From: a virus
Lineage: Duplodnaviria > Heunggongvirae > Uroviricota > Caudoviricetes
Strand: one strand, 5' to 3'
IMG/VR virus record: IMGVR_UViG_2675903481_000015
DNA length: 5,885 nt
Both the position numbers and the translations under genes were made by a program. Position 1 is the first letter of the stretch. Each line of letters begins with the position of its first letter. Under the pieces are notes generated by a model, which had not been told where the DNA came from, searched no databases, and was given only the letters and a program-made list of their open reading frames with translations. This document shows, in pieces, positions 353 through 1,803 of this stretch.

Positions 353-838
353 ATGGATCGGGAACTGAAAAATCTGATGCTGAACATTAACCAGCTGGCG
401 GCGATAGCGGGAATATGTCGCCAGACTGCGGCGGCAAGGCTGAAAAATATCCAGCCAGCCGGAGGACATGACAAGCTGAAACTCTATCGGGTGACTGACA
501 TTCTGACCTGTTTTCTTGATCTTCCCGTTCCGGCATCACTGGAAGAAATGGAGCCACACGACCGTAAGGCCTGGTATCAGTCCGAACGTGAGCGCCTCAA
601 GTTCGAACAGGAAACGGCGCAACTCATACCCGCCGATGATGTGCGAAAAGAGATGGCTATATGGGGAGAAATCGTAAGCGAGGAACTGGAAAAACTCCCC
701 AGTATTCTGGCACGTGATGCTGGGCTTAAACCGATGGCAGTAAACAGAGTGCAGTCAATTATTGACGATTTGTGTAATCTGATTATCAGCCGGATGGTAA
801 AAAATGACGTAGTGAATGAGGTCGCAAAACAGGCATGA
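353..838 (+). CDS. Terminase small subunit, Nu1 family (or a satellite-encoded TerS-like packaging protein)
   Basis: Track ORF 296-838; preferred start ATG 353 (MDRELKN...) with GGAG at 344-347. N-terminus LNINQLAAIAGICRQTAAARLKN...P.GG..K..LY matches the lambda gpNu1 winged-HTH pattern (VNKKQLADIFGASIRTIQNWQ...), and GEIVSEELEKLP resembles gpNu1 AGEIASILDGLP. Sits downstream of the cos-like site. Confidence 0.72.
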   Translation: MDRELKNLMLNINQLAAIAGICRQTAAARLKNIQPAGGHDKLKLYRVTDILTCFLDLPVPASLEEMEPHDRKAWYQSERERLKFEQETAQLIPADDVRKEMAIWGEIVSEELEKLPSILARDAGLKPMAVNRVQSIIDDLCNLIISRMVKNDVVNEVAKQA

Positions 839-1122
839 TAATGACCGAATCTGAAATACTGCGATTAATCCGCTGTGCTGGTGGAATTAGCCAGTTGGCT
901 GACGAACAGGCCGCGCAGCCGGATACAGTCACCGCTGAAAATTACGCGCGTGTGGTGGCTGAGGTGATGCGCCGTGACGGTATTGAGCTTAACGGCGTGG
1001 ATATGCGCAACATACGAACCAGAGTCCTTGAGTTGCTGGCATACCGTCGCCGTTCTCAACAACGGAGGGAGAGCGCGAAAAATACTTACCAGTGGAAGAA
1101 GCCGGAACGACTGCGGCGGTAA
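835..1122 (+). CDS. Hypothetical 95-aa protein coupled to terS, occupying the position of the large terminase gene; possibly a terL N-terminal remnant
   Basis: ATG 835 overlaps the terS stop (ATGA, 835-838); alternative ATG 841. Basic C-terminus (RRRSQQRRESAKNTYQWKKPERLRR). N-terminal SEILRLIRCAGG weakly resembles recalled lambda gpA N-terminus (SQVNRLRHFVRAGL). No ATPase or nuclease motifs. Confidence 0.4.
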   Translation: MIMTESEILRLIRCAGGISQLADEQAAQPDTVTAENYARVVAEVMRRDGIELNGVDMRNIRTRVLELLAYRRRSQQRRESAKNTYQWKKPERLRR

Positions 1123-1363
1123 CTTGCTGATATTCCCGATAACGCAAAATTGCGTTGGCTGGTGGGTGAGTTGCAGATTTGCAACTCGACCATGAAACTA
1201 CGGAAACTACCCGTAGTTTGGGTAGTAAGAGTAACACCCAGATTTTGGGGCTTACTCGCGATACCCAAATAAAGGGTATCGGTGGAAGAAATATCGTTTC
1301 TCATATGTAAGTACCGAGGGCGGAATTCCGCCTTCGGTTACTTATTGTGCTCATGCACAGGGA

Positions 1364-1423
1364 GGGGCGGGTCAAATCTCTGTACCCTGACGTCTTCAGG
1401 ACTGCCCGCCCCATCGATTTTTT
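1364..1423 (+). terminator. Long-loop hairpin with T-tract (GGGGCGGG ... CCCGCCCC, then TTTTTT)
   Basis: Perfect 8-bp GC inverted repeat 1364-1371/1405-1412 around 33 nt that holds an inner CCTGA/TCAGG pair (1386-1390/1396-1400); TTTTTT at 1418-1423. Plausible terminator for the terS transcript, though the loop is atypical. Confidence 0.3.
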
Positions 1424-1585
1424 ATACCCGCGAAAAATGAAAAACGCTTCACGCTGGTGGGCCTGATGCCGATATGGGGATCCACATAACGGATTATCCG
1501 TGATCATCCACCAGCTTCATAGCGGATAGCCGAAAAATGATAACGGTTAAGCAAAACTGCCAGCAAATTTCCCTTTTGTTTGTTA

Positions 1586-1640
1586 TTGTTCGTCGTTGTT
1601 CGTAGGGCTTCAACGAAATGTGTGGTCAGTTGTGTGGTCA
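1586..1640. repeat. Short tandem direct repeats: TTGTTCGT x2 (1586-1593, 1596-1603) and TGTGTGGTCA x2 (1619-1628, 1631-1640)
   Basis: Exact repeats read directly from the sequence, in an AT-rich non-coding stretch about 70-120 bp upstream of the junction with the thiM leader. Confidence 0.5.
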
Positions 1641-1708
1641 TTTTTGAGGTTTTTAATTCTTATATGCTTAAAAACTTATTAATTATCAACTGATAACAAA
1701 AATTAGTA

Positions 1709-1803
1709 AGAAATACCCGTATCACCTGATCTGGATAATGCCAGCGTAGGGAAGTCACGGACCACCAGGTCATTGCTTCTTCACGTTATGGCAGGAGCAA
1801 ACT
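1709..1803 (+). promoter_or_regulatory. thiM leader: 3' part of the TPP riboswitch (THI-box) plus expression platform and SD; 5' aptamer half absent
   Basis: AAATACCCGTATCACCTGATCTGGATAATGCCAGCGTAGGGAAGTCACGGACCACCAGG...GGCAGGAGCAAACT matches the E. coli thiM leader as I recall it. The preceding GGGGTGCCC...GAAGGCTGAG is missing (GTAAGA here in place of CUGAGA). GGAG SD at 1794-1797. Confidence 0.6.

Follow-up and report, generated by a model that had tools for sequence, protein, structure and literature searches.

Phage satellites that carry a helper phage's cohesive-end (cos) site are well established and include P4, SaPIbov5 and EcCICFT073 (PMC6092414, PMC6739421). In P4 (helper P2) and SaPIbov5 (helpers phi12/phiSLT) the helper-cos copy lets the helper terminase package satellite concatemers, and two cos sites in one phage-inducible chromosomal island (PICI) have been described for EcCICFT073 and SaPIbov4 (PMC6092414). 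Other PICIs are embedded in the genome of a helper (PMC10111431) or, in the case of capsid-forming PICIs (cf-PICIs) such as EcCIEDL933, carry capsid and packaging genes of their own. Here we analyze a 5,885-nucleotide stretch of Escherichia coli chromosome (IMG/VR virus record IMGVR_UViG_2675903481_000015; hereafter the window), in which positions 1123-1500 had stood out as poor in open reading frames (ORFs) and crowded with palindromes and hairpins. Our results indicate that this segment probably forms the right end, free of genes, of a PICI-family phage satellite of 10.9 kb, and that it is a mosaic of three functional pieces.

The island that contains the segment measures 10,949 bp and lies between rcnR and thiM. 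Its RefSeq genes begin with a tyrosine integrase, a DUF6387 protein, an HTH regulator, a YlcI/YnfO protein, an Icd-like protein, a hypothetical protein and a DUF4222 protein (genes 1-7); a primase follows, with a HEPN protein and a hypothetical protein encoded on the opposite strand (genes 8-10), and the series ends with a fusion of a ClpP-like prohead protease to a major capsid protein, a DUF1441 protein (window 353-838) and the 93-residue protein p93 (841-1122; genes 11-13). RefSeq annotates nothing between 1122 and thiM, and positions 1123-1500 fall between this last gene and the attR arm. The features expected of a PICI are present: an integrase at the left end and the repeat AGAAATACCCGTAT at both ends mark insertion at a specific site that is empty in K-12; the island has its own replication module, in which a cluster directly after the primase gene (L001 14737-14960) contains TGTTCACC, an iteron that we take to be the P4 type I iteron, at least 10 times and in either orientation; its length lies within the range of about 10-15 kb; and its virion gene set is incomplete, tail, portal and large-terminase (TerL) genes not being among the annotated island genes. 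Under the cf-PICI definition used here, which demands that capsid protein, protease, portal, head-tail connectors, HNH, small terminase (TerS) and TerL all be encoded, the island is not a cf-PICI, as it has only the protease/capsid fusion and a TerS-like DUF1441 protein and is without portal, connector, HNH and TerL. The elements distinguished between the p93 gene and the attR arm are as follows.

1141-1156, plus strand: hairpin A, stem of 6-7 bp and A-rich tetraloop, 21 nt past the p93 stop codon and preceded by a conserved TGATATTCCCGA
1158-1345, plus strand: block B, hairpin-rich, satellite-specific and non-coding, holding the elements at 1168-1187, 1194-1226, 1259-1281, 1287-1301 and 1313-1338
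1194-1226, plus strand: GAAACTAC units (two direct and one full inverted, plus a partial inverted one), which form a 9-bp hairpin AAACTACGG/CCGTAGTTT
1259-1281, plus strand: hairpin CGATACCC/GGGTATCG, with compensatory variants in relatives
1287-1301, plus strand: small hairpin, part of block B
1313-1338, plus strand: GC-rich, terminator-like hairpin with the perfect palindrome GGCGGAATTCCGCC, followed by TACTTATTGT
1360-1442, no strand assigned: copy of an HK97-like, HNH-dependent cos region of the SfI, SfII, SfV, SfIV, ST64B and phiP27 type
1403-1412, no strand assigned: predicted cosN TGCCCGCCCC, overlapping the right arm of the GGGGCGGG (1364-1371)/CCCGCCCC (1405-1412) repeat

Carriage of a helper cos by this island is an already known satellite strategy. 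As in SaPIbov5, which encodes the capsid-protein homologue Ccm, a capsid protein is encoded, here as the capsid fusion; unlike P4 and SaPIbov5, the island belongs to a different host and phage family and has a different sequence. It resembles EcCICFT073-type PICIs in being from E. coli, in its int, alpA-like gene and primase module, and in having more than one cos-like site (PMC6092414, PMC6739421). However, both cos sites of EcCICFT073 are lambda-like and lie just upstream of rpp, whereas the window island has one lambda-like and one HK97-like site, and no homologue of Rpp was identified in it. Among cf-PICIs, a full member of the class (locus L062) occupies the same thiM site with identical left-end genes and has in common with the window island the genes from integrase to primase, p93, hairpin A, block B and the cos copy at the right end; its genes run from int through primase to capsid, HK97 protease, portal, connector, HNH, P27-family TerS, TerL and p93, followed by the same right end, where the window island has only its protease/capsid fusion and small-terminase-like gene. 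Finally, p93 and block B are also found at the end of islands that sit within terminase or capsid genes of prophages: two relatives (L008 and L009) interrupt a prophage terminase gpA gene and a third (L063) a lambda-like major capsid gene, which makes them helper-embedded PICIs. These relatives are without the HK97-type cos copy, and the window island differs from them in being inserted in a chromosomal riboswitch. The prophage-inserted relatives carry varied defence-like cargo (TIR, Abi), and the window island carries HEPN.

When window positions 1100-1730 were compared with 50,697 phage records in a sensitive search, 1360-1442 was the sole part that matched. The full 83 bp are 91-95% identical to sequences of Shigella phage SfII, Salmonella phages ST64B and 118970_sal3, and Escherichia phages vB_EcoM-720R4, SKA5 and 689R6; SfI, SfV and SfIV match at 94-96% over the parts present in their records and the Shiga toxin phage phiP27 at 83%. 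In the phages this cos region occupies the short gap between the HNH gene and terS, upstream of terL, portal, protease and capsid genes in the HK97-type layout. The cohesive end of SfI, determined on virion DNA, is the 10-nt 5'-TGCCCGCCCC-3' (PMC3636060). Window 1403-1412 is identical to it, the SfI record ends at the equivalent of 1412, and the annotated 10-nt cos site of phiP27 (CGCCCGCCCC) aligns with the same positions. The flanks are conserved as well, with GGGGAGGGGCGGGTCAAATC upstream and ATCG(A/T)TTTTTTATACCCGCGAAAAA downstream of the decamer, and the copy agrees with the sites of SfI, SfII, SfV, SfIV, ST64B and phiP27 in the parts that do not vary among the phages, namely the GGGGCGGG left arm, the repeat arms and their spacing, the T-run and the downstream ACCCGCGAAAAA. 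It is unlike the phage sites in its position, since it follows the last island gene and precedes attR in an island without HNH and TerL, and satellite copies show lineage-specific substitutions, mostly the decamer TGCCAGCCCC. From this homology we infer that a terminase would cut 1403-1412 into 10-nt cohesive ends. The GGGGCGGG/CCCGCCCC repeat with its T-tract is, on the same comparison, a conserved part of a predicted DNA packaging signal and not a terminator; as a Rho-independent terminator the pair was rejected, its arms being 33 nt apart and 1364-1423 not being called by a terminator scan.

About 25 satellite loci have the same cos copy at a constant offset of +151 nt relative to the block B motif, and 77-83 of its 83 positions are identical. 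Several observations nevertheless speak against its use as a packaging site. Most satellite copies carry TGCCAGCCCC in place of the phage decamer TGCCCGCCCC that the window copy keeps; the genome of the host strain, MS21324, contains this cos type only once, in the island, and therefore no resident helper with the corresponding terminase; RefSeq annotates no HNH, TerL or portal gene in the island; and L062 has a diverged cos-like site of the same architecture in its canonical hnh-terS gap (14625-14715; GAGGGGGTGGGGGTGG ... CGACCGCCCC ... AAATTTTT, with CGACCGCCCC as the decamer). The right-end copy of L062 is therefore an additional, phage-type site, and the right-end cos copy as such could be accessory or a relic; a mapped cos site was not found in the cf-PICI preprints that we consulted. 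Comparison of the copies at L062, L033, L068, L041, L044 and L060 showed that four satellite copies carry TGCCCGCTCC. The TGCCAGCCCC and TGCCCGCTCC decamers may represent a satellite-specific cohesive end or decay.

Two of these observations, the missing HNH, TerL and portal genes and the lack of a prophage with this cos type in the host genome, would also be expected if a cf-PICI-type island had exchanged its HK97-type module for a lambda-type one, consisting of the protease/capsid fusion and DUF1441, so that 1360-1442 is an inactive remnant and only a second, lambda-like cos at 157-168 is used. The identical left-end genes, full HK97-type module and shared right end of L062 at the same integration site are consistent with such a swap, as is the canonical placement of the lambda-like cos upstream of the island's own terS-like gene. 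We nonetheless consider it unlikely that the copy is a relic: it is intact, and its decamer is that of a functional phage cos; the copies in satellites make up a lineage that is well conserved and fixed in position; and the copy is kept even in islands that have their own diverged cos-like site. Moreover, the SfI/HK97-type cos is found in 1650 of 5426 complete E. coli genomes (about 30%); phages with it are common and superinfecting helpers are therefore plentiful.

The two conserved parts of the segment are not bound to each other. Roughly 90 IMG/VR loci carry the conserved block; the cos copy follows block B at its fixed offset in about one third of them and is absent from about two thirds. 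Block B was never found in phages (no match among the 50,697 records), where cos occurs without it. Because A/B and cos occur independently, they are separate modules, and we take this to rule out a single RNA over 1130-1430. The reading of the whole of 1130-1430 as one structured non-coding RNA ending in a GGGGCGGG/CCCGCCCC terminator has in its favor very strong fold z-scores and the T-run after CCCGCCCC; set against the wide spacing of the repeat arms, the identity of 1360-1442 with a phage cos region and the lack of an Rfam match, these leave it with a very slim chance. The Rfam scan suggested by the original prediction yielded no RNA family: with Rfam 15 there was no match at E <2.8 in 1100-1600, lax filters included, none for the segment alone even at E up to 10, and only sub-threshold noise across the whole island. 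The alternative offered at the outset, a structured RNA or an array of protein-binding sites, was right in supposing a functional, non-coding segment, but the segment is neither one RNA over 1130-1430 nor one uniform array.

All seven inverted repeats listed originally are present in the sequence.

1141-1147/1150-1156: inverted repeat AACGCAA/TTGCGTT
1168-1175/1180-1187: inverted repeat GAGTTGCA/TGCAACTC
1195-1203/1211-1219: inverted repeat AAACTACGG/CCGTAGTTT, with a direct repeat of GAAACTAC at 1194 and 1203
1259-1266/1274-1281: inverted repeat CGATACCC/GGGTATCG
1319-1332: palindrome GGCGGAATTCCGCC, inside ACCGAGGGCGGAA/TTCCGCCTTCGGT at 1313-1338
1364-1371/1405-1412: inverted repeat GGGGCGGG/CCCGCCCC, then TTTTTT at 1417-1422
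1489-1501, no strand assigned: palindrome ACGGATTATCCGT, within the spacer that separates cos from the integrase arm sites

Their dense packing is far above chance. Counting perfect stems of at least 7 bp with loops of at most 12 nt as seeds, 1123-1500 contains 11, whereas 1000 shuffles that preserve dinucleotides contain 0.31 on average and never more than 4. For 1123-1360 the minimum free energies are -106.5 kcal/mol (plus strand, z = -8.8) and -96.7 kcal/mol (minus strand, z = -9.8), and none of the 200 shuffles folded as stably. Conservation in relatives holds for the palindromes of 1141-1345 and of the cos copy and fails for ACGGATTATCCGT, which lies at 1489-1501 and had been placed 8 nt too far left, at 1481-1493. 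This palindrome is absent from L062, the closest sibling island, which has an insertion of about 115 bp there; it sits at the insertion/deletion junction (window 1491-1500 versus L062 17390-17510), and a short minus-strand ORF starting MKLVDD occurs in both versions of the junction. A large imperfect palindrome at 1208-1278 (33 nt, 73% complementary) was rejected as a conserved structure because relatives of the L016 and L063 types disrupt the GAGTAA/TTACTC helix at its center with no compensating change.

The description of the segment as ORF-poor needs qualification, since mechanical ORFs of 39-82 codons overlap it on both strands; signs of actual coding were not found. None of its five mechanical ORFs matched Pfam or PHROGs, RefSeq places no gene there, and the only frame that stays open in relatives, on the minus strand, has substitutions that are nearly all amino-acid-changing. 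Small-protein genes, for which these ORFs and the one open frame could be cited, or a replication origin, which repeats and palindromes might suggest, are therefore the least probable of the readings we weighed. An iteron origin resembling P4 ori/crr was sought in 1123-1500 and rejected: the segment contains no TGTTCACC, and the cluster of this iteron lies directly after the primase gene instead.

The region from 1141 to 1345, comprising hairpin A and block B, is where pairing itself appears to be conserved. At the position of hairpin A, relatives have at least eight unrelated yet complementary stem sequences, among them AACGCA/TGCGTT, AGTGCA/TGCACT, GGCCC/GGGCC, AGCGCA/TGCGCT, TTCGCC/GGCGAA, CCACG/TGTGG and AGCTCA/TGAGC, and three of its pairs are changed on both sides. 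Since complementarity is kept while the sequence changes, hairpin A is, as judged from these alignments, clearly under selection for pairing rather than for sequence. Within block B, the hairpin at 1259-1281 has the compensatory variants TGATACCC/GGGTATCA and GATCCCC/GGGGATC, the latter as part of a series that leads from GATACCC/GGGTATC through the mismatched intermediate GATACCC/GGGGATC to the restored GATCCCC/GGGGATC. In the GAAACTAC hairpin, 12 of 25 sequences have T in place of a C and still pair there, as U-G, on the plus strand, and the hairpin at 1313-1338 shows G-U to G-C changes in three relatives and G-C to G-U changes in seven. The latter hairpin is called by a consensus terminator scan (11 pairs, eight of them G-C, a loop of 4 and the tail TACTTATTGT, with an interrupted T-run) and is probably the end of the late-operon transcript.

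In a count of pairs over 29 distinct variants, for which the local hairpins were set out manually, 94.9% of cells pair, compared with 31-45% when the 3' partners are slid by one to three columns, and four pairs across the A/B hairpins are changed on both sides. One-sided changes that keep a pair in hairpin A, 1194-1219, 1287-1301 and 1313-1338 are G-U on the plus strand in all 35 cells; a few changes in L063-type loci are G-U on the minus strand only. This covariation and the G-U-preserving changes fit RNA hairpins of the plus strand. The core of block B (1168-1312) is 84-98% identical among relatives where the adjoining p93 gene is 72-86% identical in nucleotides, exceeding the gene by 10-12 percentage points: 96% versus 86% in L062 and 84% versus 72% in L063, while L016 has 96% in the core and 83% in p93 at the amino acid level. 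Block B is found in PICI, helper-embedded PICI and cf-PICI loci, and the islands that carry it span three terS types. On some IMG/VR contigs (L018, L068, L079 and L087) the conserved block is present twice, at a distance of about 434 nt; breakpoints within it correspond to 1252, 1286 and 1312-1320, and its behavior is that of a mosaic recombination boundary.

Several results temper an interpretation of A/B at the RNA level. Folding and covariation analysis, as proposed originally, bore out strong folding and compensatory changes; RNAalifold, on the other hand, returned a covariation term of only -1.05 for the 29 variants and a poorly supported global consensus, and the long-range closing helix of the single-sequence fold was therefore not adopted. 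The power of covariation is limited because the variants come from IMG/VR pattern scans, which return close relatives. Most block B stems are invariant and so uninformative on pairing, the T-tract after 1338 is weak and its T-run is missing in L063-type relatives, and several elements are loop-less perfect palindromes, such as GAGTTGCAGATCTGCAACTC in relatives and GGCGGAATTCCGCC. Exact matches of at least 10 nt between the block and the rest of the island, examined as possible antisense targets, were only short and chance-like, and a literature search for PICI-encoded small RNAs gave nothing relevant.

The A/B palindromes may instead act as protein-binding sites at the DNA level. More specifically, the palindromes of 1141-1345 could be operators or recognition sites for a dimeric protein of the satellite, such as p93, or of the helper, and serve in late-operon control or as an accessory packaging site. 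The loop-less palindromes would suit this, as would the 8-bp unit GAAACTAC, which is both direct and inverted and whose number varies in relatives by 9-nt insertions and deletions; linkers and loops are strongly conserved in sequence in addition to stems, and the block is always linked to the p93 gene. Yet hairpin A keeps its complementarity through complete changes of sequence, and its variants do not track those of p93; the one-sided substitutions preserve G-U pairs on the plus strand, a property relevant to RNA and not to duplex DNA; and the three terS types among block-bearing islands argue against a TerS-specific site. The model of p93 is without a recognizable DNA-binding fold, although its confidence is low. 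On balance we regard an array of DNA sites as a doubtful alternative to hairpins acting in RNA.

The protein in question and the other features outside 1123-1500 are the following.

157-168, no strand assigned: predicted lambda-like cosN GGGCGGGAGCGG, with flanks ACG/CGCGG, 196 nt upstream of the DUF1441 terS-like gene (353-838)
841-1122, plus strand: p93, last island gene, encoding a helical, basic-tailed protein of 93 residues; hypothetical protein in RefSeq; PHROG 1561
1614-1642, plus strand: TGTGTGGTCA repeated in tandem, probable arm-type integrase sites in the P arm of attP
1709-1722, no strand assigned: attR core AGAAATACCCGTAT, 14 bp, right island boundary inside the thiM thiamine pyrophosphate (TPP) riboswitch, with the same 14 bp at attL (L001 8760)

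The protein p93 matches PHROG 1561 (E = 1e-52), and has no match in Pfam and no sequence match in PDB. Its AlphaFold model is of low confidence (pLDDT 68, pTM 0.43) and found no fold match in PDB with Foldseek (best E 5.4). Of the approximately 90 loci, all but three have a p93 homologue (65-100% identical) upstream of the conserved block, two of the three being cut by a contig end. A search of genome contigs with p93 gave one locus, in Shigella.

The lambda-like site rests on a separate set of similarities. Lambda cosN is GGGCGGCGACCT, and the window sequence at 154-173, ACG GGGCGGGAGCGG CGCGG, mirrors the lambda arrangement ACG GGGCGGCGACCT CGCGG. Positions 126-360 are 76-81% identical to the intergenic region between the lysis genes and terS of mEp460-like lambdoid phages (mEp460/phi458/569R4), one record of such a phage starts at the equivalent of 152, and the DUF1441 protein of the island is homologous, with up to 71% identity, to the small terminase of these phages. 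In lambda, Nu1 starts at bp 191. By analogy, 157-168 would be a cosN of the lambda type. On this reading the island has two cos sites, which belong to different classes, one lambda-like and one HK97-like. Positions 100-127, past the capsid-fusion gene and immediately upstream of the lambda-like cos, contain a GC-rich hairpin, GGCGGCGATAGCCGCC, with a T-run, which resembles a terminator inside the late operon.

At the far right, alignment with the empty K-12 site places the att core within the thiM TPP riboswitch, and the tandem TGTGTGGTCA repeats of the right arm recur beside int. A direct repeat of about 75 bp is present at both island ends (window 1575-1650 and L001 8860-8935) and includes TGTGTGGTCAGT/TGTGTGGTCA units in tandem; these are probable arm-type integrase sites of the P and P' arms. 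The island splits the riboswitch aptamer (window 1635-1803; L001 8700-8775; L002 2337-2433): the 5' half, presumably together with the native promoter, stays beside rcnR about 10.9 kb away, and the remnant upstream of thiM scores 33.3 bits, compared with 71.2 bits for the intact K-12 riboswitch and a gathering score of 54.3. As the aptamer is split, thiMD expression and regulation must differ in carriers. An island occupies the thiM site in at least 125 complete genomes.

Observed homology, position, conservation and covariation suggest how cleavage, packaging and transcription of the segment might proceed. After induction, the island would excise at the att core and replicate from the iteron origin as concatemers. 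Late-operon transcription would run through p93 into the A/B region (1141-1345), which would form a structured, satellite-specific 3' untranslated region (3' UTR) of this capsid/packaging operon, and would end near 1340; A/B would act at the RNA level in 3'-end formation and stabilization, and possibly as a processed RNA. An HNH-dependent terminase of P27-family TerS and TerL, supplied by a superinfecting helper phage of the SfI/SfII/ST64B type or by a co-resident cf-PICI, would bind the HK97-type site, of which the GGGGCGGG/CCCGCCCC repeat and T-tract would be conserved recognition and cleavage parts, and make staggered nicks around TGCCCGCCCC (1403-1412), so that a unit-length island is packaged with 10-nt cohesive ends. 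The lambda-type site, in turn, would be cut by a gpA-type terminase working with the DUF1441 TerS of the island or of a helper. Positions 1443-1560 would be a spacer leading into the integrase arm sites and att core. The 10.9-kb size and the island-encoded capsid protein would fit packaging into small heads, as in P4.

In the satellite literature examined we found no description of the A/B module, a block of about 190 bp common to three satellite lineages, or of a lambda-type and an HK97-type cos paired in one island; nor did that literature cover a right-end, phage-type cos copy in cf-PICIs with their own diverged site and in a terminase-less island. The call of the original prediction for a comparison with related elements at their right ends was well placed. 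The results account for the striking accumulation of palindromes, which would be the end at which a mobile element is packaged. We advance as a tentative possibility that the island is a dual-specificity satellite exploiting two unrelated terminase systems, or that A/B is a widely shared, undescribed structured RNA. If the former is true and the second terminase comes from a co-resident cf-PICI, the window island would be a satellite of a satellite; if the latter, A/B may function, for example, as a 3'-UTR-derived regulatory RNA or as a cis element for late-operon expression. The analysis predicts the exact DNA ends of the packaged island, and that phages with a cos of the SfI/SfII/ST64B type can move it.

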